A stretch of 64,000 nt of DNA. Origin: a virus. Shown here piece after piece: positions 27,196-54,655 of this stretch (position 1 is its first letter; each line of letters starts with the position of its first letter). A model generated the notes under the pieces. That model did not search any database. It was not told the DNA's origin and worked only from the letters and a program-made list of their open reading frames with translations. Made by a program: the position numbers and the translations under genes. The DNA lies in the IMG/VR virus record IMGVR_UViG_3300047510_002187, positions 31,073 through 95,072 of that record. One strand, 5' to 3'.

Positions 27196-27238
27196 ACTGG
27201 CACACTCCACGACATCCCAGCGGATTCCGTGGTATTCT
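27196..27238 (+). promoter_or_regulatory. promoter cassette (aCTGGCACA, hairpin ccacg/cgtgg, TATTCT)
   Basis: Upstream of the Ubl gene. Confidence 0.4.
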
Positions 27239-27307
27239 TAAGGGGTCGGTGAGGGAAACACCAAACCGACAAACACCTGTCCTTTACATTTCATTTCCTT
27301 TTTTATT

Positions 27308-27574: not shown

Positions 27575-27582
27575 TCCCTATT

Positions 27583-27606
27583 TTCCCAACCTCCCTTTCG
27601 GGGGAG
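27583..27606 (+). promoter_or_regulatory. perfect 8-bp GC hairpin between Ubl and JAB (attenuator or processing site)
   Basis: aacctccc-tttcg-ggggaggtt followed only by a short T-run. Confidence 0.35.
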
Positions 27607-27637
27607 GTTTACTCCACTACTTGACCTTTACAATATC

Positions 27638-40014: not shown

Positions 40015-40841
40015 ACTTCTGGATTGTATTCTTCTTCATAATACCAATAATAACCCATCCAACTATTCTTTCCTGGATTTAACACACTTTTCCGTAAACC
40101 ACCACCCGCTTTTCTTGATTCGCCAGTTAAATCGTAAGCAGCGGATCTCATGCTATCATATCTAACAATTTCTTCTGTTCGTTTATGGACACCTATTACT
40201 GGTCTTTTTGTTGGAGTCTGATCCAGTTTTTCCCACTTATATCCATATACAGTAAATCCTTCCTTTATTGATCTGCATATATTTCCACTATTTGCCACAT
40301 TTCCAGTAAGTTCTCTTGCACCTTCTCGCATACTATCAAATATAAACTCTTCTCCGGTTTCTAATTTAATCGCTTTCACTTTACGTTTTAATTTATCCGT
40401 ATTGCTATATTTTCCAGTAAGAATGCCCCATAGTTCTCCATTTTTAATTTTGTTCTTCAATGCTTTAGATACATTATTGGTCCATTCATCAGTTCTCTCC
40501 ACATTAGACATTCCATTGGATATTTTTATCTTATTTTCTTCTGCATGTTCAAAATGATCTCCACCTGAAGTAGCATTATATCCGTTGTGGTAAGTATCTA
40601 ACTTATTAACCCAATAAGTTTCTCTTTCATTTAATTTTTCTATAGGACATTCTTCTAGTATTCTTATCTTGAAAGAATCAGTACCGTATTTGTTTAATGC
40701 TCTGTAAAGAGGTCTGGTATTATACTTCTTAGATTCATATAAGTGCTCTTTCCATCTTTTGTTCAATTCATGTTTGGTTTGACCAATGTACTGTTTACCA
40801 TTGGAAATGTTTGTAATACAGTAAATCGTTCCTGTTTTCAT
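40008..40841 (-). CDS. GIY-YIG homing endonuclease (I-TevI/Seg-like); the only clear minus-strand gene
   Basis: GTIYCITNISNGKQYIGQT...RWKEH...YRALNKYG...ILEEC...ETYWVNKL...GYN; 3' end overlaps the 3' end of 39388 by about 7 nt. Confidence 0.7.
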   Translation of the reverse strand: MKTGTIYCITNISNGKQYIGQTKHELNKRWKEHLYESKKYNTRPLYRALNKYGTDSFKIRILEECPIEKLNERETYWVNKLDTYHNGYNATSGGDHFEHAEENKIKISNGMSNVERTDEWTNNVSKALKNKIKNGELWGILTGKYSNTDKLKRKVKAIKLETGEEFIFDSMREGARELTGNVANSGNICRSIKEGFTVYGYKWEKLDQTPTKRPVIGVHKRTEEIVRYDSMRSAAYDLTGESRKAGGGLRKSVLNPGKNSWMGYYWYYEEEYNPEVQ

Positions 40842-42317: not shown

Positions 42318-42475
42318 TATGAATGAGTTGGGTTATTATACCCAACTCTTTTTTTATATTCTTATGATTATTATTAAGCAGGGTAAGTTACGACTGTTTA
42401 CATCATAAGTCCTACCCCAGACCTCATCAGATTATGTGTATATCATAAGGGATCTGATGTCTGATGGGGTGATCA

Positions 42476-42700
42476 GTGGTCAGATTGTTCAGTGGCACAA
42501 GGGGTATTGTGTGGTTGGGTTCTGATGGGGTATATTTGATTCGTCCGCAAATCACCGACATGGACCCATTTGTTGCTGAACAGCAGATTGAAGAAGTCAT
42601 TCCTTATGATTGGGATGATGAAGAAACTAAGTTTGAAGTGGAAGATTATTATGATGATCTTGCCGCTGGTCTTCCCCTTGATTCCTCTTACGAATTCTGA
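42476..42700 (+). CDS. hypothetical acidic protein (start uncertain; alternative M at about 42560)
   Basis: ORF track. Confidence 0.3.
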   Translation: MVRLFSGTRGIVWLGSDGVYLIRPQITDMDPFVAEQQIEEVIPYDWDDEETKFEVEDYYDDLAAGLPLDSSYEF

Positions 42701-43140: not shown

Positions 43141-43187
43141 AAACTGGCACATCAGACTTGACATAAGATCCTGATGTGCTGTAAGAT
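43141..43187 (+). promoter_or_regulatory. composite promoter: aaaCTGGCACA box plus TTGACA-18-TAAGAT
   Basis: Both promoter classes overlap here, at the left edge of the GC-rich island. Confidence 0.45.
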
Positions 43188-43245
43188 TTGATAGTCCTGA
43201 GTAAGACTATAAACTGCACACATCAGAAAACCCTTTGTTTTTATT

Positions 43246-43407
43246 ATGAACTTCACCATTGCTGAGATCATGCTTAACCAGTGTAACACTGGTAACGACA
43301 TTCTCTCTGTGCTTGATAGCATCGCGGAAGATATGAATGAGGAAACTGAAGGCGGCGAACTTGTCGCTGCAGGTACAACTACTGAAACTGATTACATTGA
43401 CTTTTGA
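43246..43407 (+). CDS. hypothetical acidic small protein (54 aa)
   Basis: Hand-translated. Confidence 0.3.
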   Translation: MNFTIAEIMLNQCNTGNDILSVLDSIAEDMNEETEGGELVAAGTTTETDYIDF

Positions 43408-43661
43408 GTATGAATATGATTGTTATTAACCGCACATTTACAACTGAAGAATCTGAGGCGATTGCTAGCATTAGTGCTACCAGTCAGTCTGATCGGGTAG
43501 AACTTGCCTATCAGACCAATCCCGACAAAAGTTACACCTATGTCAGCACTTCTGGCAGTTTCGTAACTAAACTTAACGACACTCTTGCGCAGGGTGCTAG
43601 CGTTGGTTCGCTTGTCTTTAATGCTCGCCGTTCCGGTGAACTGAAGGAAGCGACAGTCTGA
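43404..43661 (+). CDS. hypothetical protein (GC-rich island)
   Basis: ORF track. Confidence 0.4.
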   Translation: MSMNMIVINRTFTTEESEAIASISATSQSDRVELAYQTNPDKSYTYVSTSGSFVTKLNDTLAQGASVGSLVFNARRSGELKEATV

Positions 43662-43670
43662 CACTTTGAC

Positions 43671-43716
43671 AGGTGGCACAAGGGCACTTGATTCCGGTCA
43701 GGTGCCCTGTTACATT
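43671..43716 (+). promoter_or_regulatory. promoter cassette (gTGGCACA, GC-rich hairpin agggcac/gtgccct, TACATT)
   Basis: Island version of the cassette. Confidence 0.4.
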
Positions 43717-43740
43717 TACATCGTTCACCACTGAACTCTC

Positions 43741-44025
43741 ATGACTCGCTCCGAACAGATCCGCGAACTCTTTTCTACTCTAGGTTCTACCATTGTTTCT
43801 GTAGAGTTTGTGAAGCGTGATGGTACGCTTCGGAAGATTCGTTTTAATCCTAAAGATCGCCAGGAGATTGTGGGCACTGGTCGCCCTAGCAATAATCCTG
43901 ACATCTTCCGTGTTCGCGACTTTGATGTTGCGAAACGTGACGGAATCGGTGCATGGCGTTCCTTTGACGCTAACCGTGTGCGTCGGATTGCCTACCGTGG
44001 TCAAGTGCTGAACTGGACGGTCTGA
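43741..44025 (+). CDS. hypothetical protein (94 aa)
   Basis: ORF track. Confidence 0.45.
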   Translation: MTRSEQIRELFSTLGSTIVSVEFVKRDGTLRKIRFNPKDRQEIVGTGRPSNNPDIFRVRDFDVAKRDGIGAWRSFDANRVRRIAYRGQVLNWTV

Positions 44026-44027
44026 CC

Positions 44028-44073
44028 ACTGGCACAAGGGCACTCGCAAGGGTGCCCTCTCACCCCTTATACT
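44028..44073 (+). promoter_or_regulatory. promoter cassette (CTGGCACA, hairpin gggcac/gtgccc, TATACT, leader caagtcaacggg)
   Basis: Island version of the cassette. Confidence 0.45.
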
Positions 44074-44097
44074 GATCAAGTCAACGGGATTCCTCCG

Positions 44098-44853
44098 ATG
44101 CTGAACTTCTCCAAAGGCAACGCCAAACTTGGCACTCACACGCTGATCTTCAACCTGCCTGCAGGTAAGACATGCCCCGGTGCAATGTTTTGCAAGTCTT
44201 TTGCTGTCGTTGGTGACGACGGAAAGCGTAGGATTGTTGATGGCGAACACACTGAGTTTCGGTGTTTCGCTGCATCTTCTGAGGTGCAGTATGATGCTGT
44301 CTTCAACAATCGCGCCCGCAATCTGGAGTTGATTGTTGATGCTCTGCAGAACGGAACTGTCCCAGGTTACTCTGTCAGTGCTGCGGATCTTATCCACGAC
44401 AGCATCCAACATCATCGCACTAAGAAAACAGAATTGGTGCGCATTCATGAGTCTGGAGACTTCTTCTCTGGTGCGTATCTTGACGCATGGATTGAGGTTG
44501 CCCATCGCAATCCTGATCTTAAGTTCTACTGCTACTCTAAGAGTCTGCGGTTGTTTCTTAACTTCAAGTTGCCCAGTAACTTCTACATGACCGCATCGTA
44601 TGGTGGTCGGTTTGATTACCTGATCGACGAAGGTTACTTCCCACGTTATAGCAAAGTCTGCATGAATGATGCGGACGCTGAACGTCTGGGTCTGGAAGTT
44701 GACCACGATGATTCACACTGCTTCGGTGATAAACCGTTCGCTTTGCTTGTGCATGGCACGCAACCGAAAGGTTCAGAATGGGGCGCCGCAATCCGTGCCC
44801 GTCGTTCTAACAAACAGTTCGGAGGTTACAGTAAGAAAACTGTGACGGTCTGA
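44098..44853 (+). CDS. conserved-looking Cys-rich protein (251 aa), function unknown
   Basis: N-terminal SKGNAKLG...TCPGAMFC motif. Confidence 0.45.
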   Translation: MLNFSKGNAKLGTHTLIFNLPAGKTCPGAMFCKSFAVVGDDGKRRIVDGEHTEFRCFAASSEVQYDAVFNNRARNLELIVDALQNGTVPGYSVSAADLIHDSIQHHRTKKTELVRIHESGDFFSGAYLDAWIEVAHRNPDLKFYCYSKSLRLFLNFKLPSNFYMTASYGGRFDYLIDEGYFPRYSKVCMNDADAERLGLEVDHDDSHCFGDKPFALLVHGTQPKGSEWGAAIRARRSNKQFGGYSKKTVTV

Positions 44854-44855
44854 CC

Positions 44856-44900
44856 ACTGGCACACTAGGGGGTGACAGGATCACCCCCATGCCCTACAAT
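44856..44900 (+). promoter_or_regulatory. promoter cassette (CTGGCACA, hairpin gggggtgac/atcaccccc, TACAAT) with leader tctcagttcaccacagaac
   Basis: Island version of the cassette. Confidence 0.45.
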
Positions 44901-44925
44901 TCTCTCAGTTCACCACAGAACTCCC

Positions 44926-45084
44926 ATGGCAAAACTCTTTAAGATCGCCAAGTTTGAGAACGAAAACTTCAAGATTCTGGAAACTTTCGGCACCTATGAT
45001 GATGCTGATGATCGGTATGATTATTGGGCAGAACGCTATCCTAACGCATGGGTAGAGATCTTAGACCCAACCGATGAAGTCTGA
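44926..45084 (+). CDS. hypothetical small protein (52 aa; start revised)
   Basis: First ATG after the conserved leader; the track's 5' extension covers the promoter. Confidence 0.4.
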   Translation: MAKLFKIAKFENENFKILETFGTYDDADDRYDYWAERYPNAWVEILDPTDEV

Positions 45085-45093
45085 TTCTTATAA

Positions 45094-45120
45094 AGAACCC
45101 TTCGGGGTTCTTTTTTATTC
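45094..45120 (+). terminator. rho-independent terminator
   Basis: gaacccc-ttcg-ggggttc followed by T6. Confidence 0.65.
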
Positions 45121-45139
45121 TTTTGTAATAATTATAATA

Positions 45140-45300
45140 AAGAAGGGTAAGTGGCGACCTTTTATGTCATCAGAGCGACCCTGCTCCTCATTCCGTTGTC
45201 CCCATAGTATAGGGCATGATGGGGGTCTGCTGTGCCACCTGAGGACGGTTTGGGCAGTGGCACAATCCTGGTTGCTGGGGTGGGTTCCCCCGTGGCATAC
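45140..45300 (+). repeat. conserved non-coding element, copy A (divergent)
   Basis: agggtaagtg...tcatca...ccgttgtccccatagtatagggcatgatgggg...ggtctgctgtgcca...gtttggg shared with copies at 46600, 47540 and 49020. Confidence 0.4.
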
Positions 45301-45361
45301 TATGTGCATCGGCGGGAGGGAAACACCCCGACCGCCAGCAAACCCAATCCCAGAGTCTACC

Positions 45362-45889
45362 ATGCCTGCCGCCACTGCTCTCAACTTTGACGGTTTCAAC
45401 GACGATCAGATGCGTGCCCTTATGGTGCTCATGCAGCAACACATGGAGCAGCGTAAGGTTTCTTTTGATGATCAGGTTTCTTCTGTTCAGCAACAGCGTT
45501 ATGATGAGCGCATGAAAGAAATCGGACAAAATGTTGCTGTGATTGAAACAACGAACGCAGCGTTTGAGGTTTGCCTGAATGAGATCCTGGGCGACATTGA
45601 TGAGTCGCGTTGGATTGTTTCTCAACTTGACAAGTGCCGCCGGATGAATGACTTCCGCCACTTCATCCCCGTTTACTTCAAGTATCGCGGAAAGGATCTT
45701 AAGATCGAAGAACTGTTGCGCACTCTTGCCGCAATCTATCGCCTCAAAATGAAGAACTATAATAATCCTGCAGATAAGTCCAAGGATCGTGCTATCGTTC
45801 GGCATGAAATCCGTTGCCCTCACTGTGGCGAATACGCTACACGTTTGGTGGAGTATCTTGAGATCAAGGGCATCCGTTGGGCGGACTGA
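45362..45889 (+). CDS. hypothetical protein with a C-terminal CPHCGEY zinc ribbon
   Basis: Start at the ATG after the cassette; the track's 5' extension covers non-coding sequence. Confidence 0.45.
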   Translation: MPAATALNFDGFNDDQMRALMVLMQQHMEQRKVSFDDQVSSVQQQRYDERMKEIGQNVAVIETTNAAFEVCLNEILGDIDESRWIVSQLDKCRRMNDFRHFIPVYFKYRGKDLKIEELLRTLAAIYRLKMKNYNNPADKSKDRAIVRHEIRCPHCGEYATRLVEYLEIKGIRWAD

Positions 45890-45900
45890 GATAAGGAATA

Positions 45901-45925
45901 GGGGGCAATCTTATGCCCCCTTTCC
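45901..45925 (+). terminator. rho-independent terminator
   Basis: gggggc-aatcttat-gccccc followed by tttcc. Confidence 0.5.
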
Positions 45926-45954
45926 TATCATAAGAGATCCTTATCAGAAAACCC

Positions 45955-45981
45955 TTGACATAAGATCCCACACCGTATAAG
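45955..45981 (+). promoter_or_regulatory. sigma70-like promoter TTGACA-15-TATAAG preceded by CATAAGAGATCC
   Basis: Shares ttgacataagatcc with 43158. Confidence 0.4.
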
Positions 45982-46009
45982 ATTATCTCAGTTCACCACC
46001 TGAACCACA

Positions 46010-46198
46010 ATGTCTCTCACACAACTGGTAAGAACTTACGCAACTTGCTGTAAGTTGGAAGACAAAGATAAAGATCCAAAGGATCAAATCTCCTGGGTTC
46101 TTTACAATCATCAGGAAATGGTTTTGATTCATGGTCAACCTCAGATTCTAAAGTCTTGGGAGATTGCTGGAGCGTTTCGGAGACTGTTTGCAAAGTGA
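46010..46198 (+). CDS. hypothetical protein (62 aa)
   Basis: Follows the leader tctcagttcaccacctgaaccacaATG. Confidence 0.45.
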   Translation: MSLTQLVRTYATCCKLEDKDKDPKDQISWVLYNHQEMVLIHGQPQILKSWEIAGAFRRLFAK

Positions 46199-46260
46199 CC
46201 ACCAAAGGGGACCGGGAACGGTCCCCATGCCCTAGAATCCTCTCAGTTCACCACTGAACC

Positions 46261-46404
46261 ATGCGACGCCTCCCTAACATCCTCCTGATCGGTTCCCTGC
46301 TCTACATTGGCAGCGGTCTGGGTTTGTCTGCCCTTCAGGTTGCCAAGGCACATGCCGACCGGGTTGCTGTTACGATCTGTGAAGCATCCCGCGACTGCCG
46401 CTGA
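46261..46404 (+). CDS. small secreted/membrane peptide (47 aa)
   Basis: Hand-translated after the leader ctctcagttcaccactgaaccATG; hydrophobic N-terminus. Confidence 0.35.
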   Translation: MRRLPNILLIGSLLYIGSGLGLSALQVAKAHADRVAVTICEASRDCR

Positions 46405-46444
46405 TCGTCTGCTACACTATCTGCAGTTCACCACCGAACCTCTC

Positions 46445-46564
46445 ATGATCTTTGATCTGAAACAGCAAATTGAAGAGCAAGGATACATCATTATCAGCGA
46501 CATGAGCGATGATGAACTTGCCGAACTCTTCCAAGTTATGATAAACGACGAAGAGGAATCATGA
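46445..46564 (+). CDS. acidic mini-protein (39 aa)
   Basis: Follows the leader ctgcagttcaccaccgaacctctcATG; the track's 5' extension is rejected. Confidence 0.3.
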   Translation: MIFDLKQQIEEQGYIIISDMSDDELAELFQVMINDEEES

Positions 46565-46570
46565 ATAATT

Positions 46571-46598
46571 GGGAGAGGCAAATCCTCTCCCTTTTTTT
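46571..46598 (+). terminator. rho-independent terminator
   Basis: gggagagg-caaat-cctctccc followed by T7. Confidence 0.65.
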
Positions 46599-46599
46599 A

Positions 46600-46760
46600 T
46601 ACTTTTGTTGTTATTATTTGCGTGCAGGGTAAGTGTCTTGTTTTGTATCATCACGGCGCCCCCGTTCGTTTCATTGTCCCCATAGTATAAGGCATGGATG
46701 GGGTCAGGTGTGGGGTCTGGTGTGCCAGTTTGGGAACTGGTCAGGAGTGGTTGCCTGGTG
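46600..46760 (+). repeat. conserved non-coding element, copy B
   Basis: tatactt...cagggtaagtgtcttgttttgtatcatcacggcgcccccgttc...gtccccatagtataaggcatggatgggg. Confidence 0.45.
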
Positions 46761-46803
46761 GCATCCCATGCCCTATGATTCTTTCAGTTCACACGAACAC
46801 CCC

Positions 46804-47109
46804 ATGCTTTCCAGCATCATCCGCACCAGCATCCGCTCCCACCTGATTCAGACCGGTTCTAAGACCTGCTCCGAACTGGTGCGGGATCTGGGACTGGACC
46901 CGAAGCGTCACAAGGGCACCATCCATGCCCTGATGGTGGACATGGAGGATGCAGGCATCCTGAGCGCCACCCGTAGCGCCAATGGCAAGCGTCACAAGTG
47001 GGAAATGGTTCCCACCGCGATCCGCAAGCGGGACCGCCTGGTCGCTGCTATCCTGGTCCGGTCTGACCAATCCGACCAATCCGACCAATCCGACCAATCC
47101 GACAACTGA
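46804..47109 (+). CDS. winged-helix/HTH-like putative transcription regulator with a C-terminal (SDQ)x4 repeat
   Basis: TCSELVRDLGLDPKRHKGTIHALMVDMEDAGIL; start after the conserved leader. Confidence 0.4.
   Translation: MLSSIIRTSIRSHLIQTGSKTCSELVRDLGLDPKRHKGTIHALMVDMEDAGILSATRSANGKRHKWEMVPTAIRKRDRLVAAILVRSDQSDQSDQSDQSDN
47065..47100 (+). repeat. 9-bp tandem repeat gaccaatcc x4
   Basis: Direct reading; encodes SDQSDQSDQSDQ. Confidence 0.8.
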
Positions 47110-47177
47110 CACACCGGGGGGTTGCGAAACCCCCCCTCCCCCTGCTATCTTAGATCTGTTCCTGAGGGATTCACCCC

Positions 47178-47498
47178 ATGCGAGTCATCGAACGCAAAAT
47201 GAACAAAGCGATTTCCAATCGTTACGATTGGAAATCTGCAAACACTCGTGTAGAGTATGAAGCAGGAAATGAGATCTCACGAGTGTTTCTTTATGGAAAC
47301 CTGATCGCTGAGATTGGAGAAGGTTTCCTGAAACTTTATGATGGCGGACATCAGACAACCACCACAAAGTCCCGCCTGAATGCTATTCTTTCTGAGAATG
47401 GTTGCGGTGATAAGAAAGTCTATCAGAAAGACTTTCAATGGAAGATCAAACATGATGGAATTGTGGAGGATTTTGTATCAGGAATGATTCTTCGCTGA
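47178..47498 (+). CDS. hypothetical protein
   Basis: ORF track. Confidence 0.4.
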   Translation: MRVIERKMNKAISNRYDWKSANTRVEYEAGNEISRVFLYGNLIAEIGEGFLKLYDGGHQTTTTKSRLNAILSENGCGDKKVYQKDFQWKIKHDGIVEDFVSGMILR

Positions 47499-47507
47499 TT
47501 ATAACTT

Positions 47508-47536
47508 ATGGGGGCAGAAATGCCTCCATTTTTTTA
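47508..47536 (+). terminator. rho-independent terminator
   Basis: gggggca-gaaa-tgcctcc followed by T7. Confidence 0.6.
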
Positions 47537-47539
47537 TAC

Positions 47540-47700
47540 TTAAGATCCTATTATTTACGAGCAGGGTAAGTGTCTTGTTTTGTATCATCGCGGCGCCCCC
47601 GCTCTTCTTCGCTTGTGAGACAATCATAGCACCCCATCAGACCCCAGCGTGGCATCAGGTGGACAGTCTGAGCGGTGGCACAAGACCCCTTGGCAGGATG
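47540..47700 (+). repeat. conserved non-coding element, copy C
   Basis: tatactt...gagcagggtaagtgtcttgttttgtatcatcgcggcgcccccgctcttcttc. Confidence 0.45.
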
Positions 47701-47768
47701 CCTCCCTGTCGGTTATGGTAGTTTCAACGACGGGCACCGCTCTACATTCCCCCCCGTCGCCTAAGATC

Positions 47769-48098
47769 ATGAACTCCCCCGCCTTCCCCCCCGCTGATGC
47801 TCTGATCGCTCATCTTAAGAGCATTAACTATCAGAAACATTTCAACAACTACATGGACACGGTAGAAACCGTGTGCCTCACAATCGCCGCCATTGTTTAT
47901 GTCATCTTCAAGAAAACACAAGAATGGTATCAGAATGGTGGCAAAGATGCTACCCTTCAGATTATCAAGAAAGTTTGGAACTTTCTTTCAGTTTCTTATA
48001 CTTGGGTGCGCTGTGAGGTTTATCCTGCAGTGATTAAGTTTCTGGAGAATGTGTCAGAAACTTATGGCGCCTGGCGTGACCTTGTGACAGTCGCCTAG
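47769..48098 (+). CDS. membrane protein (1 TM), start revised
   Basis: TVCLTIAAIVYVIF hydrophobic segment. Confidence 0.4.
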   Translation: MNSPAFPPADALIAHLKSINYQKHFNNYMDTVETVCLTIAAIVYVIFKKTQEWYQNGGKDATLQIIKKVWNFLSVSYTWVRCEVYPAVIKFLENVSETYGAWRDLVTVA

Positions 48099-48163
48099 GT
48101 GTCCACTGGGGGCAGCGATCCTGCCCTCTCATGCCCTACACTGTATCCAGTCGCAACCAACCC

Positions 48164-48337
48164 ATGCAGACACCGATGAGGATTGAGGTTCGCTATCAAG
48201 TCCCCTACGGGGACTGCCAGTGGCGCTCCCAGTGGTTCCCCACTGTTCAGGAGGCGCAGCGTATGGTAGGATTTTATCGCTCCTGCGGATCGCCCGCCCA
48301 CATCGCCCCCAGCAGCATGGCACAGTTCCAACGCTGA
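48164..48337 (+). CDS. hypothetical small protein
   Basis: Start after the leader. Confidence 0.35.
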   Translation: MQTPMRIEVRYQVPYGDCQWRSQWFPTVQEAQRMVGFYRSCGSPAHIAPSSMAQFQR

Positions 48338-48384
48338 AACTGTCACAAGGGGGGACACCGATCCCCCCTCCCATGCCCTACAAT
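48338..48384 (+). promoter_or_regulatory. promoter cassette (aaaCTGTCACA, hairpin gggggga/tcccccc, TACAAT, leader tctttcagttcaccacccgaac)
   Basis: Island version of the cassette. Confidence 0.45.
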
Positions 48385-48412
48385 TCTTTCAGTTCACCAC
48401 CCGAACCGCACC

Positions 48413-48661
48413 ATGTTCTCCACTCTCACCTTCCGCGATCATAGTCTCAAAGGTGCTACAATCGCTCAGCGTACCTTTGACAATGGTTGGGGAGTTTCTG
48501 TAGTTTCTGGACCCGAAGGTTCCGGTCTTAAGGGTACAATCGGGCAGGATACTTTTGAGGTGGCAATTATACGCCCAAGCGGCAACATGCTGGATGAAAT
48601 TATGCCATGGCAGACTCCGGTGCAGGTATCCAGTCTCATGCGCCTAGTTTCCATGCTGTGA
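48413..48661 (+). CDS. hypothetical protein
   Basis: ORF track. Confidence 0.4.
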   Translation: MFSTLTFRDHSLKGATIAQRTFDNGWGVSVVSGPEGSGLKGTIGQDTFEVAIIRPSGNMLDEIMPWQTPVQVSSLMRLVSML

Positions 48662-48671
48662 CGGTTTGTGA

Positions 48672-48717
48672 ACCTGCACAAGGGGAGGCGACAGGATGCC
48701 TCCCCATGCCCTACAAT
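48672..48717 (+). promoter_or_regulatory. promoter cassette (CTGCACA variant, hairpin gggaggc/gcctccc, TACAAT)
   Basis: Leader gacaagtcaaccaaaggg. Confidence 0.4.
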
Positions 48718-48745
48718 GGACAAGTCAACCAAAGGGAGAACCCCG

Positions 48746-48967
48746 ATGACCCAGATCACCACTGAGACCTGCTTTGATGATGCCAACTTCCCCGCCTGGT
48801 GGAACGAAGCATACGACTACATCATGGGCGATAGTTACATCGAGCACATCATGGGATGCCCCGATGATGGTTGGTGCCTTGATTGTCTGGTTGATTCCTA
48901 CAACAAAGGGATGACACCTAGCGCCGCTGTCAATGAAGCGGTGGACGGTTACGATCCCACCCCCTGA
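48746..48967 (+). CDS. hypothetical Cys-containing protein
   Basis: Start after the leader. Confidence 0.4.
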   Translation: MTQITTETCFDDANFPAWWNEAYDYIMGDSYIEHIMGCPDDGWCLDCLVDSYNKGMTPSAAVNEAVDGYDPTP

Positions 48968-48976
48968 GTATAATCA

Positions 48977-49004
48977 ACCGGAGGCAGAAATGCCTCCTTT
49001 TTTT
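48977..49004 (+). terminator. rho-independent terminator
   Basis: ggaggca-gaaa-tgcctcc followed by T7. Confidence 0.65.
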
Positions 49005-49019
49005 ATACTTTATGAACCA

Positions 49020-49110
49020 TTATTTGCAGGCAGGGTAGGTTACTTGTTTTGTATCATCGCGGCGCCCCCGCTCTTCTTCCGTTGTGTCCATAGTCTAGCG
49101 CATCATGGGC
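49020..49110 (+). repeat. conserved non-coding element, copy D
   Basis: caggcagggtaggttacttgttttgtatcatcgcggcgcccccgctcttcttccgttgtgtccatagtctagcgcatcatgggcg. Confidence 0.45.
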
Positions 49111-49222
49111 GCCACCGTGGCATTGTGACTCATTGTGACTGATAAGCGTTGCTGATCGTTCGGGGGTTGACGCGGGCACCGATCCGTGGGATTCTATAGG
49201 GGTCAACACGCGACACTCCGCT

Positions 49223-49411
49223 ATGGCACTCAACATCACCCCCCGCTTCTACGCCCGCCTGCAGCACGGGTTCTCAATGGAGGCGAAGTTTGAGACCCCG
49301 ACGATGGCAGCGGCGGCAGCAACCGCCCTCGCTCCTGTTCTGGGGTATCTCCCGGTTGTAGAGTGCTACGTCAACGGTCAGTGGATCCGGTATGATCAGA
49401 TGACCGCCTGA
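49223..49411 (+). CDS. hypothetical protein
   Basis: ORF track. Confidence 0.35.
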   Translation: MALNITPRFYARLQHGFSMEAKFETPTMAAAAATALAPVLGYLPVVECYVNGQWIRYDQMTA

Positions 49412-49445
49412 GATCCTCTAGGGGACCCACAGCGGGTCCCCCGCC

Positions 49446-49670
49446 ATGCTACGATCCACAAGCAATCAACGCACCGCCATGATCATCCGCACGCCCAGCA
49501 TCCTGCGCCGCGCTTTCTACGTTTCGATCAACACCCGCGCCCGCCTGCGGGATGAGGTGCTCGCCGTGAGCATCGGCAGCGCCTACCTGGGCGTCAACCG
49601 CCTGAGCGATTCCGACATCGGCGGGTTTGAAATCGTCTGGGGCATCCTGCCGGATTCCGAGGCATTGTGA
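49446..49670 (+). CDS. hypothetical protein
   Basis: Follows the cassette (TACGAT). Confidence 0.35.
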   Translation: MLRSTSNQRTAMIIRTPSILRRAFYVSINTRARLRDEVLAVSIGSAYLGVNRLSDSDIGGFEIVWGILPDSEAL

Positions 49671-49742
49671 ACAAAGGTTACGGGGCACCCTCCGGGGTGC
49701 CCTCCGCCATGCTACAATTCCAGAGTCAACCGCAAGCGAACC

Positions 49743-49952
49743 ATGATCGCCAACCACGCCACCGCCGCCGACTTTACCCGCTGGGAGGCGCGAGCGAAGA
49801 CGATGAGCGACGAAGAGCTGCTCTACAGCGCCCGTGACGCCCGCCAGGCGGAGGCGGCTATGCGCGGGTGGAACCCGATCGCTGAGGGACGCTACAGCGA
49901 CGAGGCGTGTACCTACGGCGACGAACTGCGCCGCCGCCGTGCCAATCGGTGA
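49743..49952 (+). CDS. hypothetical protein
   Basis: Follows the cassette (TACAAT, leader agagtcaaccgcaag). Confidence 0.4.
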   Translation: MIANHATAADFTRWEARAKTMSDEELLYSARDARQAEAAMRGWNPIAEGRYSDEACTYGDELRRRRANR

Positions 49953-50209
49953 GGTGTCCATCGGGGATCGGCAACGGTCCCCCCATCCTGTAGACTGAGA
50001 GGACAACAGGGAGAGGGGCAGGGTCGCCCCGATGACGCAAAAGGTCGCCACTTCCCCTGCCTGCCTTTAATGGTTAAATCTTCACCTAGAACTTTCAGGA
50101 AACTTTCACCTAACCCTCACCCTACGGGCGTCCGATGGTCCCCCCGATCCTGTACACTTCTATCAAGCGCAACGGGGCAGCGCACGAATGCCCCACCGGT
50201 TCCAGGGTT

Positions 50210-50509
50210 ATGACTACCGCCACCGTTCTCTCCGGCGCCTTCTATCGCACCTTCAGCGAGGCGGAGAGCAGCGCGATCCGCAACCTGCACGTCGAACCCG
50301 GCAGCGTGCTCACGGGCGCCCCTGGGTTCGTTGAGGTGATCTTCCACCGCAACCCGACCCGCGCCTACGGGTTCGACGCCGACCCCGCCTTTACGGCGGA
50401 TCTGTTTGACGTTCTCGGGTACACTGACCTGCGAGGCGAGTCGCTGGGGCGGATGATCGCCCGCGCTCGCCAGGATGGGCGCCTGCAGGCGATCCCTGAG
50501 GAAGTGTGA
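50210..50509 (+). CDS. hypothetical protein (MTTATVLSG...), shares its leader and N-terminus with 50607
   Basis: About 70 nt upstream plus the first codons are duplicated at 50540-50625. Confidence 0.4.
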   Translation: MTTATVLSGAFYRTFSEAESSAIRNLHVEPGSVLTGAPGFVEVIFHRNPTRAYGFDADPAFTADLFDVLGYTDLRGESLGRMIARARQDGRLQAIPEEV

Positions 50510-50606
50510 ACGATTGTAACGGGCACCCTCCGGGGTGCCCCGCGATCGTCTAGGATGTCATCAAGCGCAACGGGGGAGCGCCGAATCCCCCACCGGTTCC
50601 AGGGTT

Positions 50607-51356
50607 ATGACTACCGCCACCACCGCCCGCCATAACGAAACTGACGCCCTGCTGGAGCGGGTGCTGCGCGGTCTGCACGGTACTAATCCTCAGGCGGCAG
50701 CTAATCTTGAGCACGATCTGGCGCAGTGTGAGGATCGTAAAGTGCAGCAGTTTAGTGTAACAACCCGCCGCGACGGTTTGATTAACTTTACCTCTGATCT
50801 GAGTGATGCTGAGGTGCTGCAATCCCTTCGCGGTCAGCGTTCACAATTTGCACAAGATCTTGCCGCTAAGTTTAATCGTCTGAGCGCATCTCAGTATGCC
50901 TGGGCACATAAACTTGCCGTGGATAATGTTAAAAAGCAGCAGAATGTTGCTAAGGTGAATGATGCTGACCTCTCCATGTTTGAGGCACTGTTTAATGCTT
51001 TCGAGGCAGCACGTAGCAAGGGTGCTAAGCGTTTGACCCTGCGATTCGCCGGGGTTAATGTGAAACCCAACCGCGACATGTCTGCGCTGTGGGTTACATC
51101 TCAGACTGAGACTGAGGAAGGGAACTACGGAATCCAACCCAAGTACCTGGGTAAAGTTACCCGAAAGGCGCTGGATTCGCGCCTGCCCGATGATGTCAAA
51201 GCGATCATCATGGCGGCAGCGTCCGATCCCCTCACCGCAGCGATTCGCTACGGTAAGGTATCCGGGGAGTGCTCATGCTGTGGGCGGGAACTAACGAATC
51301 CGGAGAGCATTGAGCGGGGGATTGGTCCTATCTGTGCCGACAAGTTCGGATGGTGA
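50607..51356 (+). CDS. hypothetical protein (250 aa) with a C-terminal CSCCGRELTNPESIERGIGPICADKFGW motif
   Basis: Start at MTTATTAR after the duplicated leader. Confidence 0.45.
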   Translation: MTTATTARHNETDALLERVLRGLHGTNPQAAANLEHDLAQCEDRKVQQFSVTTRRDGLINFTSDLSDAEVLQSLRGQRSQFAQDLAAKFNRLSASQYAWAHKLAVDNVKKQQNVAKVNDADLSMFEALFNAFEAARSKGAKRLTLRFAGVNVKPNRDMSALWVTSQTETEEGNYGIQPKYLGKVTRKALDSRLPDDVKAIIMAAASDPLTAAIRYGKVSGECSCCGRELTNPESIERGIGPICADKFGW

Positions 51357-51364
51357 GGTATACC

Positions 51365-51393
51365 GGGGGAGGGACAGTCTCTCCCCCTTTCTC
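51365..51393 (+). terminator. rho-independent terminator at the right edge of the GC-rich island
   Basis: gggggaggg-acagtct-ctccccc followed by tttctct, then TATACTT as at the other island terminators. Confidence 0.55.
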
Positions 51394-51555
51394 TATACTT
51401 TATGTGTACGTGCTAAATGACACCTATTAACCGTGCTTATCGACAGTATGCCGATGGATAAGGGCGCCTTATGGGTCGCGCCTAGCGATTGAAAAACGTT
51501 CAACTACCCTAATCTATAACAACTCTGACCCACGCTAGTTCTATAAGACTCACAA

Positions 51556-51771: not shown

Positions 51772-51957
51772 ATGATTGAAAAACTTTATCACATCTACGT
51801 GAAAGACAGTTGCATTTATCATTCTCTGAAGGAGGAAGAGTTCAATACTACTTGGATTGCCTTAAATCGCCTTGGAGAATTGTTGTCAGACTGTCCAGAT
51901 CTCTCTTATGAGGAAGTGACCATAGACCGGGAAATCGCGCTGAACTCATCCCATTGA
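51772..51957 (+). CDS. hypothetical protein
   Basis: ORF track. Confidence 0.35.
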   Translation: MIEKLYHIYVKDSCIYHSLKEEEFNTTWIALNRLGELLSDCPDLSYEEVTIDREIALNSSH

Positions 51958-52010
51958 CAAGTCCCTATATAGACTGTTATAATCAGTTTGAGGTTTGTTA
52001 AAAAAATTTG

Positions 52011-52487
52011 ATGAATTTATTGGAAAAATTTTCCAAGTATCTTCCAGATATACTTGATGATAATGAATGTTGGGAATGGCAAGGAAAAATTGATGCTCAT
52101 GGTTATGGGTACATTTGCAGAAACAAAAAAACTTTAAAGGCGCATAGAATTTCTTATGAAATTCATTATGCAGAACCTTTGGGAAATCTCCACTGTCTTC
52201 ATAGATGTGATAATCCAAAGTGTGTTAATCCTTCACATTTGTTTTCTGGAACTAATCTTGATAATGTCAAAGATAAAGTCAATAAAGGAAGATGTTATAC
52301 TGGTAATCAAAAAGGCGAAAATAATGGGGCATCAAGATTAAAAAATACTGATGTAATCAGAATTAGACAACTATATAAATCGGATAATTATACAACTATT
52401 AAACTTGCGGAAATGTATAATGTGCATCGCTCTACAATTTCTTATGTTGTAAATAATAAAACTTTTAAACATTTATTAGAGGATTGA
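52011..52487 (+). CDS. HNH homing endonuclease
   Basis: CWEWQGKIDAHGYGY...AHRISYE...LHRCDNPKCVNPSHL..GTNLDN; track start at 52008 is a TTG. Confidence 0.75.
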   Translation: MNLLEKFSKYLPDILDDNECWEWQGKIDAHGYGYICRNKKTLKAHRISYEIHYAEPLGNLHCLHRCDNPKCVNPSHLFSGTNLDNVKDKVNKGRCYTGNQKGENNGASRLKNTDVIRIRQLYKSDNYTTIKLAEMYNVHRSTISYVVNNKTFKHLLED

Positions 52488-52489
52488 AA

Positions 52490-53260
52490 ATGGCTCGTGG
52501 ATTTACAGTAAAAGCGAAACCTCCCACAACTGCACCAAAACAGGAGTGGGACTACGAAAAAATTAAAGAAAGAATGAAAGGCAAATCTATTGTCTTCTGT
52601 CTACCTGGACGAGGATGTTCTTTCATTTTCTTAAAGGCATTTGTTCAACTCTGTTTTGATCTAGTACAAAACGGAATGAGCATTCAAATATCCCAGGATT
52701 ATTCCTCAATGGTAAACTTTGCAAGATGCAAGTGTCTCGGAGCAAATGTTCTAAGGGGACCAAAACAAGTTCCTTGGGATGGAAGACTGGAATATGATTA
52801 TCAACTTTGGATTGATAGTGATATTGTCTTCAACACAGAAAAGTTTTGGCAGTTATGTGATATGTCACTACCAGAAGAAGGCGAAGAAAAATCAATTGTT
52901 GCCGGATGGTATGCTACAGAAGATGGTGTCACAACCTCTGTTGCCCATTGGTTAGACGAAGAAGATTTTCGTCGTAACGGTGGTGTCATGAATCACGAAA
53001 CTGTTGAGACCATCAGCAAGCGTCGTAAACCATTTACAGTTGATTATACTGGATTTGGTTGGGTCCTTATTAAGAAAGGTGTTTTTGAAAATCTTGAGTA
53101 TCCTTGGTTTGCTCCTAAGATGCAAGTTTTTGAATCAGGCGCCGTTCAGGACATGTGTGGGGAAGATGTTTCATTCTGCCTTGACGCAAAAGACGCAGGT
53201 TTTGAAATCTGGTGTGACCCTCGCGTAAGAGTCGGTCACGAAAAAACAAGAGTTATTTAA
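52490..53260 (+). CDS. putative glycosyltransferase (DxD-containing)
   Basis: WIDSDIVF DxD motif; EDVSFCLDAKDAGFEIWCDPRVRVGH C-terminal region; track start at 52484 is a TTG. Confidence 0.35.
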   Translation: MARGFTVKAKPPTTAPKQEWDYEKIKERMKGKSIVFCLPGRGCSFIFLKAFVQLCFDLVQNGMSIQISQDYSSMVNFARCKCLGANVLRGPKQVPWDGRLEYDYQLWIDSDIVFNTEKFWQLCDMSLPEEGEEKSIVAGWYATEDGVTTSVAHWLDEEDFRRNGGVMNHETVETISKRRKPFTVDYTGFGWVLIKKGVFENLEYPWFAPKMQVFESGAVQDMCGEDVSFCLDAKDAGFEIWCDPRVRVGHEKTRVI

Positions 53261-54253: not shown

Positions 54254-54655
54254 ATGCCTCTAGAGAGGGTAAGTAAAGGGTTCAAAGATATAAGTATGTC
54301 ATTTCAGGTTAATCCTCTGAATTATGATCTTGTGGCGCTCAGGAATGAATCTGCAATCGCAAGATCAGTGAGAAATCTTGTACTTACCCAACCTGGAGAA
54401 AAATTTTTCAATCAAAATTTAGGTTCTAGAGTTTCAAGATCACTTTTTGAAAATCTTGATGAAATTTCAGCATCTATAATCAAAGATGAGATTGAAAATA
54501 CTATTAAAAATTATGAACCAAGAGTCAATCTAATTGATGTTATCGTATCACCAGATTATGATAACGGCGAATTTAATGTGACAATACAGTATTTGATTGT
54601 TGGTATTGATGTATTACCGCAACAGTTATCCTTTGCACTTCAGCCAACCCGATAA
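54254..54655 (+). CDS. gp25: baseplate wedge protein gp25 homolog
   Basis: IKDEIENTIKNYEPRVNLIDVIV aligns with T4 gp25 VERNIESAVRNYEPRIDKLAVNVIP (exact NYEPR); about 130 aa. Confidence 0.85.
   Translation: MPLERVSKGFKDISMSFQVNPLNYDLVALRNESAIARSVRNLVLTQPGEKFFNQNLGSRVSRSLFENLDEISASIIKDEIENTIKNYEPRVNLIDVIVSPDYDNGEFNVTIQYLIVGIDVLPQQLSFALQPTR

Follow-up and report, generated by a model that had tools for sequence, protein, structure and literature searches.

The window analysed here, a 64-kb stretch of an uncultured virus, is part of a divergent T4-like, Kyanoviridae-like cyanophage whose gp6 shares 59% amino acid identity with that of Synechococcus phage B23. It contains an island of 20 plus-strand ORFs of 39-251 amino acids, in agreement with the roughly 20 small ORFs counted in an earlier note made from the sequence alone. 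The island is the 3', promoter-distal end of the hyperplastic (accessory-gene) region and lies directly upstream of the baseplate module. Its genes and flank are as follows.

43246-45084 (+), module 1 (g1-g5), GC3 0.41-0.52
43246-43407 (+), g1
43416-43661 (+), g2, phrog_4357; g19 is a distant paralogue
43741-44025 (+), g3, phrog_2267, weak WYL_2/Sm-like match
44098-44853 (+), g4, Pfam GP88 (1e-42)
44926-45084 (+), g5
45362-46564 (+), module 2 (g6-g9)
45362-45889 (+), g6
46010-46198 (+), g7
46261-46404 (+), g8, predicted membrane peptide
46445-46564 (+), g9
46804-47498 (+), module 3 (g10, g11)
46804-47109 (+), g10, GC3 0.77
47178-47498 (+), g11, Pfam Kyano_Gp96 (1e-37), GC3 0.40
47769-48967 (+), module 4 (g12-g15)
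47769-48098 (+), g12
48164-48337 (+), g13
48413-48661 (+), g14, PHROG match
48746-48967 (+), g15
49223-49952 (+), module 5 (g16-g18), the GC-richest module, GC3 0.76-0.87
49223-49411 (+), g16
49479-49670 (+), g17
49743-49952 (+), g18, homologue of an ORF of cyanophage S-2L
50210-50509 (+), g19, GC3 0.84
50607-51356 (+), g20, Pfam DUF6011, phrog_4046; anchor gene of the locus
51772-53260 (+), AT-rich conserved flank: dn0 (51772-51957), dn1 (52008-52487) and dn2 (52484-53260), then gp25 and gp6

Fifteen of the 20 island families have homologues in related uncultured phages; among cultured cyanophages, homologues were found only in B3/B23, S-SRM01, S-2L and S-CRES1/2. The description of these genes as novel is thus right only in part; besides these homologues, g4, g11 and g20 belong to Pfam families and g2, g3 and g14 have PHROG matches. 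The CSCCGR..GIGPIC motif singled out in the earlier note is real and belongs to g20, whereas its winged-helix (g10) and zinc-ribbon calls found nothing in Pfam, NCBIfam and PDB sequence searches. The C-terminus of g10 consists of SDQ repeated four times, for which a 9-nt tandem repeat (47062-47106) codes. The island was found to have neither an integrase nor an att site nor a tRNA target, and the nearest mobility-type gene is a GIY-YIG endonuclease 3 kb upstream. The suggested anti-defence function is unsupported, the analysis having turned up no evidence in either direction, and biological roles for the island proteins are conjectural.

Base composition and codon usage

The island stands out by a genuine step in composition: GC is 0.526 over 43230-51400 against 0.344 in the remainder of the window, a two-boundary segmentation has its optimum at 43440-51480 (0.529 versus 0.340), and the GC-richest 8.17-kb interval in all 64 kb starts at 43301. 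The estimate of a GC content well above 55% applies to 48.0-51.4 kb (0.58), the sole part of the island above that value, but not to 43.2-48 kb, at only 0.487. The left edge is gradual, with GC of 0.40-0.45 from 42.4 kb on; the right edge is sharp, GC falling from 0.58 to 0.33 in about 400 nt at a terminator. Per 1000 codons, CGC (34.8 in the island versus 1.2 in the background), GCC (29.6 versus 2.8) and CTG (33.8 versus 4.2) are strongly increased and AGA (1.0 versus 24.4) and TTA (0.5 versus 22.3) nearly lost; the reported switch towards GCC, CGC and GGG is thus strong for the first two and only modest for GGG (8.8 versus 4.2).

GC3 ranges by gene from 0.39 to 0.87, with sharp contrasts between the neighbours g10 and g11 (0.77 and 0.40) and between the paralogues g2 and g19 (0.41 and 0.84), and the island therefore lacks the uniformity of a single foreign block. 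AGA/AGG, TTA and ATA are shunned by every one of the 20 genes, including those with GC3 of about 0.40 (AGR 4/137, TTA 1/145, ATA 2/109). A second GC-elevated block, absent from the earlier note, lies at 27-32 kb (GC 0.44).

Cassettes, terminators and a dispersed element

Throughout the phage, small genes are preceded by a cassette that comprises, in order, an ACYGKCACA box, about 30 nt often containing a hairpin, a TAnnnT hexamer, a leader and the ATG. The degenerate box has 28 matches against 1.2 expected, 22 of them on the plus strand from 992 to 48339. The earlier note had every island gene using this same cassette; the box is indeed phage-wide, but the cassettes of g2 and g9 are without a hairpin, and those of g16-g20, the GC-richest genes, have a hairpin and a -10 but not the box, so that these genes are not fully wired into the phage promoter system as had been claimed. 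GC-rich hairpins are nearly restricted to the island, and in module 4 a GC hairpin followed by CCATGCCCTACAAT/TACACT stands ahead of each of g12-g15. The leader CAGTTCACCAC, correctly recognised as island-specific, occurs in exactly five copies, every one within the island, and g7, g8 and g9 carry the leader GTTCACCAC-N-GAAC. Cassette edges reach into coding sequences: g2, g3 and g4 terminate in a cassette-encoded T-V-stop (GACRGTCTGA; 6 matches versus 0.54 expected), and g19 and g20 share a duplicated 40-nt leader, including the first five codons, that is 98% identical (50185-50224 versus 50582-50621). The island genes may be expressed early by the host polymerase.

The five intrinsic terminators reported inside or at the edge of the island were recovered, at 45092, 46571, 47508, 48980 and 51365, together with a sixth at 42325 that forms the left-hand functional boundary of the module array. 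Module boundaries are also marked by a dispersed element, about 85-110 nt long and not described before, of which the window has six copies.

42325-42348 (+), intrinsic terminator, 9-bp stem and T-run, ahead of element copy 1
42349-42477 (+), dispersed HPR element copy 1, the most diverged (nhmmer E=1.5e-23)
43143-43245 (+), cassette 5' of g1: box ACTGGCACA, hairpin, TTGACA-18-TAAGAT
45092-45243 (+), terminator (45092-45113), then directly element copy 2 (45111-45243)
46571-46721 (+), terminator (46571-46591), then directly element copy 3 (46592-46721)
47508-47660 (+), terminator (47508-47529), then directly element copy 4 (47529-47660)
48980-49128 (+), terminator (48980-48997), then directly element copy 5 (48998-49128)
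49966-50081 (-), element copy 6, inverted (nhmmer E=2.5e-13), in the 257-nt g18-g19 spacer
51365-51387 (+), intrinsic terminator at the island's abrupt right-hand boundary

The element reaches 12 copies per 17 kb in relatives, with seven in cultured B23 and two in S-SRM01, and is confined to this clade's locus wherever found. The core of copy 4 (47550-47616) shares 89.7% nucleotide identity with L096/L097, and an inverted copy also occupies the place of copy 6 in relatives, where it lies immediately upstream of g20.

The locus in related phages and the sources of g18 and g20

Where the earlier note had looked to related phages for presence or absence of the island, the same locus proved to be present in related uncultured phages and in cultured S-SRM01 and B23, with gp25, gp6 and gp7 downstream and dn2 84-89% identical across more than 600 IMG/VR stretches; its GC, however, goes from a flat 0.32 (L035, L043) to 0.60-0.65 (L103-105, L099, L002, L004), and its families are shuffled, g4, g6, g10, g11, g13, g17, g18, g19 and g20 recurring in differing orders and subsets. 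Rather than the single foreign 8-kb block once proposed, the island is a mosaic at a long-standing variable locus of the whole clade. GC3 varies widely among orthologues (g13 0.17-0.69, g20 0.33-0.77, g18 0.45-0.82) while the flank genes remain AT-rich. In B23 the repeat architecture goes with only slight GC enrichment (0.37-0.43), and the cassettes and elements therefore bring no GC by themselves. Modular acquisition at cassettes, as the earlier note suggested, agrees with the shuffled families and with a g18 indel between the window and L111 bounded by hairpin-CCATGC-TAnnnT repeats; this one junction, read by eye, is suggestive of recombination at cassettes as the mechanism.

For g18 the evidence supports the proposed high-GC phage source; for g20 it is suggestive. 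The former gene shares 74-75% amino acid and 73% nucleotide identity with an unannotated ORF in the early region of S-2L (MW334946, 5334-5537, between S2L_13 and S2L_14), and the two are alike in GC (0.69-0.70; S-2L genome 0.69), a match in both sequence and composition that argues for transfer. The S-SRM01 copy of g18 has a GC of 0.46. Beyond g18, no gene, box motif or dispersed element was found in common between the window and S-2L, a 45-kb siphovirus. Homologues of g20 in 723 sequenced phages belong to Mycobacterium, Pseudomonas, Rhizobium, Caulobacter and Ralstonia phages, with no cyanophage, and this restriction to phages of high-GC hosts hints at a comparable source. Since g18 is the only family for which a highly identical relative of high GC has been sampled, most donors are hypothetical. 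A host-lineage origin, also entertained earlier, is not borne out by a scan of the g18 family (the one family scanned) in 185,579 species genomes, which returned only three MAG contigs and no cyanobacterium; nor is a link to marine Synechococcus, given that S-2L and the nearest cultured relatives are freshwater phages.

Known systems and competing explanations

Horizontally acquired islands of deviant composition, and their amelioration, are a concept of bacterial genomics. The present island resembles them in its sharp GC and codon departure, its patchiness in relatives and a graded composition fitting unequal residence times; it differs in that the recipient is a lytic phage, the island is GC-rich within an AT-rich genome and acquisition went gene by gene and not in one event. 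Further parallels are the promoter-early and promoter-middle stem-loop cassettes (PeSL/PmSL) of T4-type hyperplastic regions (Arbiol et al. 2010, PMC2839356; Comeau et al. 2014, PMC4122927), which are likewise short units of stem-loop, promoter and translation start, dense between small ORFs of variable T4-like regions, overlapping the ends of neighbouring genes and adjoining gene-sized indels between relatives. Unlike PeSLs, the island units have ACYGKCACA about 30 nt before the -10 and not a TTGACA -35 at 17 nt, an arrangement whose logic is nearer that of the Mot-box PmSL; their hairpin, found mainly in GC-rich copies, lies within the promoter spacer and not upstream of the -35; each has a conserved GTTC..GAAC leader hairpin; and nothing in PeSLs corresponds to the larger second repeat, which is fused to terminators. 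The ORFanage of cyanophage S-PM2 is similar as a contiguous set of small ORFs with few database matches, variable between close relatives of a T4-like cyanophage, although no homology to the island was found and the text searched reports no strong GC shift or rare-codon avoidance (PMC4503421). In that source (Puxty et al. 2015, PMC4503421; Millard et al. 2009 cited there), the ORFanage is put forward as a dispensable region gained by horizontal transfer, with homologues mainly in freshwater and hypersaline metagenomes, dense PeSLs are reported as not seen in S-PM2, and the authors argue against PeSL involvement.

The earlier observation is thus partly confirmed and its interpretation partly supported. 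The reading that we favour, at a probability of about 0.55, is that of a PeSL-like shuffling region into which genes are imported from a pool of high-GC phages. Even so, GC3 within a family follows surrounding GC (g20 r=0.81, p=2e-7; g11 r=0.49; g13 r=0.52), which, with the avoidance of AGR, TTA and ATA, is accounted for no less well by selection or by a regional process than by history. Selection, a serious rival if an unlikely one, would keep the block GC-rich as a compartment of genes in the host codon dialect: the host tRNA pool would translate the island before or without phage tRNAs for AT-rich codons, and imported or resident genes would be held at, or pushed towards, host-like usage. 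Codon avoidance in all 20 genes and in low-GC3 orthologues of g20 and g11 in other phages (4/164, 6/293, 0/113) speaks for it, as do the persistence of GC-rich versions where dn2 has diverged to 70% identity (L103-105), the island's codon pattern recurring at 28-32 kb, and the match of the avoided codons to reported cyanomyovirus tRNA genes (Leu-TAA and Arg-TCT in the minimal set, Ile-TAT in several; PMC3152331), with a tRNA-Leu-TAA in this region of B23. Yet the small cassette-bearing genes at 0-27 kb are AT-rich (AGR/Arg about 0.6), the close relatives L035 and L043 thrive with a flat-GC locus, amelioration likewise generates AGA, TTA and ATA more slowly than any other codons, and in g16-g19 the GC1, the GC2 and the Ala/Arg-rich proteins indicate that the genes come from a GC-rich genome and are not just tuned at synonymous sites.

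A regional mutational process, such as GC-biased repair or gene conversion resulting from a very high rate of recombination across the hyperplastic region, would lift GC locally whatever the origin of the genes. The correlation with flanking GC, the repeat density and a GC peak that almost every relative has at one position, 1-2 kb upstream of dn2, would suit it, but GC3 gaps of up to 0.37 between adjacent genes (g10 and g11, g7 and g8), the abrupt right edge, the low GC of B23 despite its seven elements and the transfer indicated by g18 make it improbable. The expected GC range of picocyanobacterial hosts takes in the island's 0.53-0.61, the window comes from an uncultured assembly and a 258-kb JGI contig carries the identical g20, all of which could be read as captured cyanobacterial DNA or an assembly chimera. 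This is largely refuted and very improbable: the architecture recurs in dozens of independent IMG/VR, ENA and NCBI contigs and, in weaker form, in cultured S-SRM01 and B23; phage-specific boxes, leaders and elements run throughout the block; the g18 family was not found in cyanobacterial genomes; and the recognisable families (GP88, DUF6011, Kyano_Gp96, PHROGs) are phage families. Against the favoured import reading, simple amelioration should have erased the GC signal by the time dn2 identity had dropped to 70%, unless import is continuous.

Under import into a shuffling region, the locus would turn over gene by gene in a clade whose cultured relatives are freshwater phages. Each small gene is packed in a PeSL-like cassette, which holds the previous gene's stop codon and the box, then a spacer in which a hairpin is common, and after it a -10-like hexamer, a short hairpin in the leader and finally the start codon; gene groups are bracketed by an intrinsic terminator fused to the dispersed element. 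These repeats would provide expression signals and may also provide short homologies for the insertion, deletion and swapping of genes between co-infecting phages. The unusual G+C would stem from uptake at the locus from a high-GC phage gene pool sharing the same high-GC picocyanobacterial hosts, of which S-2L-like siphoviruses may be one sampled example. We infer both the direction of transfer and amelioration: genes of unequal residence time or source would have drifted unequally towards the phage's AT-rich composition, leaving the GC3 mosaic and the peak beside the conserved boundary. The island is a striking variant of known phage mosaicism and not a new kind of system.

Composition, gene content and setting of the island

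The GC content of the island, a block of 20 plus-strand genes (g1 to g20, 39-251 aa) at 43230-51400, was computed exactly as 52.6% against 34.4% for the remainder of the window. An unsupervised segmentation with two boundaries, run on 36-58 kb, placed its edges at 43440 and 51480, and of all 8.17-kb windows in the 64 kb, the one beginning at 43301 has the highest GC. The sliding profile lies at 0.25-0.38 over most of the window, at 0.45-0.50 at 43-48 kb and at 0.55-0.61 at 48-51 kb; the right edge is an abrupt drop after 51.4 kb that coincides with an intrinsic terminator (51365-51387), and the left edge is gradual, with a GC of 0.40-0.45 from about 42.4 kb. A GC well above 55%, as estimated in the earlier note, is thus found in the last 3.4 kb (58%) and not in the rest of the island. 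The switch in codon usage described there is borne out by the counts per 1000 codons in island and background, which are 34.8 and 1.2 for CGC (29-fold up), 33.8 and 4.2 for CTG, 29.6 and 2.8 for GCC, 1.0 and 24.4 for AGA (24-fold down) and 0.5 and 22.3 for TTA. Composition is uneven within the block: per-gene GC3 ranges from 0.39 to 0.87, climbing overall towards the 3' end, and neighbours may contrast abruptly (g10, 0.77; g11, 0.40). Three kinds of codon are avoided in all 20 genes, including those with a GC3 near 0.40: AGA/AGG accounts for 4 of their 137 Arg codons, TTA for 1 of 145 Leu codons and ATA for 2 of 109 Ile codons. AGR codons make up approximately 60% of Arg codons in window genes elsewhere. 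Both in composition and in codon usage, the island departs from the resident genome in the manner of a horizontally acquired one.

A second, weaker GC rise that the earlier note did not mention is present at 27-32 kb (0.44; 0.40-0.48 over 27200-31000), in which AGA, TTA and ATA are likewise avoided. The block looks like a phage-borne E1/JAB cassette, either PRTRC-like or of the ubiquitin-like conjugation type.

Genes of the second GC-elevated block
27308-27574: ORF without hits
27638-28675: Prok-JAB protein
28675-29763: ORF without hits
29833-30546: ThiF/E1-like protein with weak matches to PRTRC_ThiF, PADLOC E1-E2/Cap2-like and BilD
30549-30944: ORF without hits

Family matches were counted for seven of the 20 island genes. 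Those named are g4 (Pfam GP88; 1e-42, 146.7 bits, cutoff 24.4), g11 (Pfam Kyano_Gp96; 1e-37, 129.1 bits, cutoff 27), g20 (Pfam DUF6011; 4e-15, 55.4 bits, cutoff 26.6; also phrog_4046), and g2, g3 and g14, which match PHROGs without known function, g3 having an additional weak WYL_2/Sm-like match. NCBIfam returned no match for the island proteins, PDB sequence searches with g4, g6, g10 and g20 returned nothing, and the PADLOC models, a library of defence systems that does not contain anti-defence proteins, gave no significant match for g3, g4, g6, g10 or g20. An AlphaFold model of g20 (pLDDT 70.7, pTM 0.40) had no Foldseek match in the PDB (best E=0.14, TM below 0.2). The winged-helix regulator and zinc ribbons proposed earlier found no confirmation in these family and structure searches. 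Direct BLASTP of g2 against g19 gave no match; the two are distant paralogues (GC3 0.41 and 0.84) connected through an orthologue from the related locus L103. The C-terminal SDQSDQSDQSDQ tail of g10 is encoded by a 9-nt tandem repeat (TCCGACCAA x4) at 47062-47106.

Megablast searches with the island and with 1-20 kb found no close relative among 50,697 phage records. The best amino acid identity of gp6 is 59%, to Synechococcus phages B23 and B3, followed by P-TIM68, Bellamy and S-SM2; gp25, gp6 and gp7 lie downstream of the locus in relatives, and a protein identical to g20 is present on a 258-kb JGI contig. Together with the Kyano_Gp96 assignment of g11, these observations identify the window as part of a large, divergent T4-like cyanophage of the Kyanoviridae type. 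Over the first 52 kb of the window, small genes follow one another in a long series, of which the island is the final stretch before the structural module, such that the locus sits between conserved core modules of a T4-like genome. Neither tRNA nor tmRNA genes occur anywhere in the window, and no integrase was seen among its Pfam matches; the integration genes and target sites expected of a horizontally acquired island were thus not found. A GIY-YIG (Seg-like) homing endonuclease gene (40008-40841, minus strand) lies 3 kb upstream of the island on the opposite strand, and HNH endonucleases are found close to the equivalent locus in the cultured phages S-SRM01 and B23.

Other window genes
1059-1919: PcfJ-like
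24900-26855: very AT-rich ORF of 651 aa (GC 0.27) without a Pfam match
31601-32413: SPFH/Band7
33812-34543: CCA-adding/poly(A) polymerase-like
54655-56577: gp6 baseplate wedge (Pfam Gp6-like), downstream of the island

Putative promoter cassettes and a dispersed element

The cassette reported in the earlier note is real and phage-wide, and is also found in relatives. It consists, in order, of a box ACYGKCACA, a spacer of about 30 nt, a TAnnnT hexamer, a leader of about 25 nt and the ATG, the conserved upstream element being the box at about -45. The box has 28 matches in the window against 1.2 expected, 22 of which are on the plus strand between 992 and 48339. Hairpin, -10-like hexamer, leader and ATG precede 13-14 of the 20 island genes. 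In the island the spacer is a GC-rich hairpin of 7-10 bp, weaker or missing elsewhere, which overlaps the -35 position; a good -35 was seen at 43158, 44872 and 45955 only, that at 48688 being weaker, and the loops of some hairpins provide a -35-like GACA at 17-18 nt (GTGACA-17-TACAAT at 44872; also 48688). The full integration into the phage's own system that the earlier note supposed does not extend to the GC-richest genes, g16-g20, which carry hairpin and -10 without the box and are therefore less integrated.

At eight sites in the window the leader holds a mini-hairpin, formed by GTTCAC(C)AC-N-GAAC and located 2-10 nt ahead of the start codon. The motif is common to relatives, including S-SRM01 (L115 16932, 17916), and absent from cyanophage S-2L; it may act in translation or in stabilising the RNA.

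Leader mini-hairpins before start codons
42040
43723
44908
45991
46246
46426
46787
48392

Cassettes separate nearly all island genes, and in the one junction that was examined closely an indel adjoins them: in the related locus L111, which has no g18, one cassette of hybrid appearance takes the place of the pair of hairpin-CCATGC-TAnnnT cassettes found on either side of g18 in the window. Genes g19 and g20 have in common a 40-nt segment that is 98% identical (50185-50224 and 50582-50621) and runs from the last part of the leader through the start codon to the fifth codon (MTTAT). Identity is 74% over about 50 nt upstream (50131-50183 and 50529-50581). A cassette reaching into coding sequence has here been duplicated or recombined recently. 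The cassette extends into the preceding coding region as well: the motif GACRGTCTGA, which forms the final two codons and stop of g2, g3 and g4 and has a non-coding copy at 47662, was matched six times against 0.54 expected.

Five of the six plus-strand terminators (42325, 45092, 46571, 47508 and 48980) pass directly into a conserved element of about 85-110 nt with the layout TATACTT, ATTATT, N4, GGCAGGGTRRGTG, TTTTGTATCATC, a short GC hairpin, CTC..TTGT and TAGTCTA, which splits the island into five or six terminator-bounded modules.

Copies of the dispersed element
42349-42477, plus strand
45111-45243, plus strand
46592-46721, plus strand
47529-47660, plus strand
48998-49128, plus strand
49966-50081, minus strand (inverted), between g18 and g19

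The equivalent place in relatives, just upstream of g20, is likewise occupied by an inverted copy. Copy number reaches 12 per 17 kb (L099), with seven copies in B23 (L165 8657-15259) and two in S-SRM01 (L115 16162-17834), and the core is 80-90% identical between phages at the nucleotide level, the neighbouring genes being 70-78% identical. A scan of IMG/VR with the core pattern returned 47 stretches, each with dn2 (a conserved AT-rich gene downstream of the island) or island families and all from this AT-rich T4-like clade, to whose locus the element is confined, for which reason it was rejected as a donor signature. The element is non-coding, since indels between its subtypes are not multiples of three. 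A structured RNA was also rejected, in that RNAalifold found no consensus in the MAFFT alignment and the minimum free energy of individual copies was no better than that of shuffles (mean z -0.3). A small covarying hairpin of 4-6 bp occupies one position in 28 of 33 copies, as against 32% of shuffles, with 19 different stem sequences. The 33-copy alignment showed no MITE-like terminal inverted repeats, the element's ends, ATTATT (5') and TAGTCTA (3'), not being mutually inverted. Over the 64 kb, neither element nor cassettes matched Rfam at the gathering threshold; the sole match with E<1, to rsmX, lies at an unrelated site and scores 24 bits, below the threshold of 56. We infer that the element combines the functions of terminator, promoter and leader, and that no other sequence of the locus is better suited to homologous exchange.

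The architecture of the island matches in its logic the PeSL/PmSL units of T4-type phages, composite stem-loop and promoter units that are concentrated in hyperplastic regions and mediate the gain, loss and exchange of small ORFs (PMC2839356, PMC4122927), and the g18 junction of L111, a single junction, behaves as PeSLs predict. The island differs from known hyperplastic regions with mobile cassettes in the architecture of its putative promoters, its added leader hairpin, its new terminator-fused dispersed repeat and a shift of 20 GC points and of rare codons that is unusual for cyanomyoviruses. The locus belongs among hyperplastic regions, its regulatory cassettes being probably mobile, and nothing indicates a categorically new system.

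The locus in relatives and the source of its genes

More than 600 IMG/VR stretches carry a dn2 gene with 84-89% identity to that of the window (52484-53260), and dn2 is 70-89% identical across all compared loci, the genes upstream of it differing in set and order in each, as is typical of hyperplastic regions. Homologues of g20 with 64-83% identity occur on about 25 viral contigs, and others among hundreds of metagenome proteins; in relatives the gene lies invariably just upstream of dn0 (another conserved AT-rich flanking gene), dn2, gp25 and gp6. GC was profiled upstream of dn2 in each locus having enough sequence, and a continuum was found, from flat at 0.32 (L035, L043) through about 0.40 (many loci) to 0.60-0.65 (L103-105, L099, L002, L004); the maximum nearly always falls in the second kb upstream of dn2, and on the downstream side GC stays at 0.31-0.35. 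The layout is the same in cultured freshwater S-SRM01, where GC rises mildly to 0.42-0.48, and B23 shows a rise to 0.37-0.43. The families of g4, g6, g10, g11, g13, g17, g18, g19 and g20 recur among relatives in varying subsets and orders, with orthologue GC3 ranging from 0.17 to 0.69 for g13, 0.33 to 0.77 for g20 and 0.45 to 0.82 for g18 and following neighbourhood GC (g20 Spearman r=0.81, p=2e-7). This recurrence and the GC continuum show that the locus varies throughout the clade and that the island is one of its states; it was not acquired by this phage alone, nor did it arise in assembly.

When the 17 unassigned island proteins were compared as a concatenated query with the 50,697 phage records, seven records matched, the best match being that of g18 to an unannotated ORF of cyanophage S-2L (75% amino acid and 73% nucleotide identity). 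The GC of g18 and that of the S-2L genome are both 69%; in S-SRM01 the family member shows 63% identity and a GC of 46%. The S-2L ORF, of about 70 aa, lies between S2L_14 and S2L_13 (L114 3993-4200, corresponding to MW334946.1 5334-5537, complement), and the deposited annotation appears to miss it. Homologues of g20 among sequenced phages (723 records) belong to phages of Mycobacterium, Pseudomonas, Rhizobium, Caulobacter and Ralstonia, with no cyanophage among them, the identity to phages of high-GC hosts being about 33%. A putative donor lineage of matching composition was found for g18, in S-2L, is suggested for g20, and was found for none of the other 18 genes. A resemblance of S-2L promoters, leaders and gene ends to the island cassettes was considered and rejected: S-2L has one box match, no element and only g18 in common. 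Exchange with a high-GC phage pool is accordingly supported firmly for one gene and by distribution for one more, and the donors of the remaining genes lie outside the sampled phages.

Competing explanations and significance

The reading that we favour, with a probability of roughly 0.55, is that a PeSL-like shuffling locus would have imported genes from a high-GC phage pool, which would then have ameliorated to different degrees. Its main rival, somewhat unlikely in our estimation, is that selection maintains host-like codon usage in the island genes; the codons in question are the ones for which cyanomyoviruses carry tRNAs (PMC3152331), their avoidance extends to orthologues of low GC3, and GC-rich versions of the locus persist in lineages with only 70% dn2 identity, but other small cassette-bearing genes of the window are AT-rich and relatives with a flat-GC locus exist. 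A regional mutational bias raising GC would account for the correlation of family GC3 with neighbourhood GC, yet it sits poorly with the sharp contrasts from gene to gene and with the B23 locus, which is repeat-rich and GC-poor, and we regard it as improbable. Host capture or chimerism is largely excluded and very improbable. A scan for the g18 family in one genome per species (185,579 species) spoke against a host origin, as it yielded three contigs from metagenome-assembled genomes (MAGs) and none from cyanobacteria; the three are probably mis-binned cyanophage contigs, and the dispersed element is also present on the first and third.

MAG contigs with g18 homologues
L116 (RGAJ01000223.1): Rhodobacteraceae bin
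L117 (PAQM01000014.1): Crocinitomicaceae bin
L118 (JBIKKO010000330.1): Oligoflexales bin

A bolder proposal, which we hold to be unlikely, is that this freshwater clade keeps a selectively GC-rich "host-dialect" compartment of high-GC-phage genes devoid of AGA, TTA and ATA, expressible without phage tRNAs, and organised and shuffled by two repeat systems specific to the clade, the ACYGKCACA cassette and the hitherto undescribed terminator-fused 85-110 nt element acting as a portable module boundary and recombination site. If true, the island would have evolved as a platform for acquiring and expressing genes, as opposed to a passive remnant of transfer, and the element would represent a new class of repeat in phage recombination and regulation.

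In the S-SRM01 paper, the text searched does not contain "hyperplastic", "horizontal", "promoter" or "G+C", and its two mentions of "GC content" concern the overall genome GC of two phages. With their weaker versions of the locus, cultured S-SRM01 and B23 open the cassettes and the element to experiment, and relatives that range from flat to 65% GC at one locus are a natural experiment that could separate amelioration from codon-usage selection. A passage of the S-PM2 ORFanage paper states that dense PeSLs were not seen in that cyanophage (PMC4503421); the island shows a dense array of PeSL-like cassettes in a cyanophage, a setting where they had been reported absent. T4-like cyanophages have been described as constitutively low-GC, with tRNAs of their own compensating (PMC3152331), to which a block 20 points higher in GC, avoiding exactly the tRNA-dependent codons and recurring in many uncultured relatives, is a clear exception. 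The island connects the gene pools of AT-rich myoviruses and of high-GC, S-2L-like siphoviruses that infect the same kind of host.
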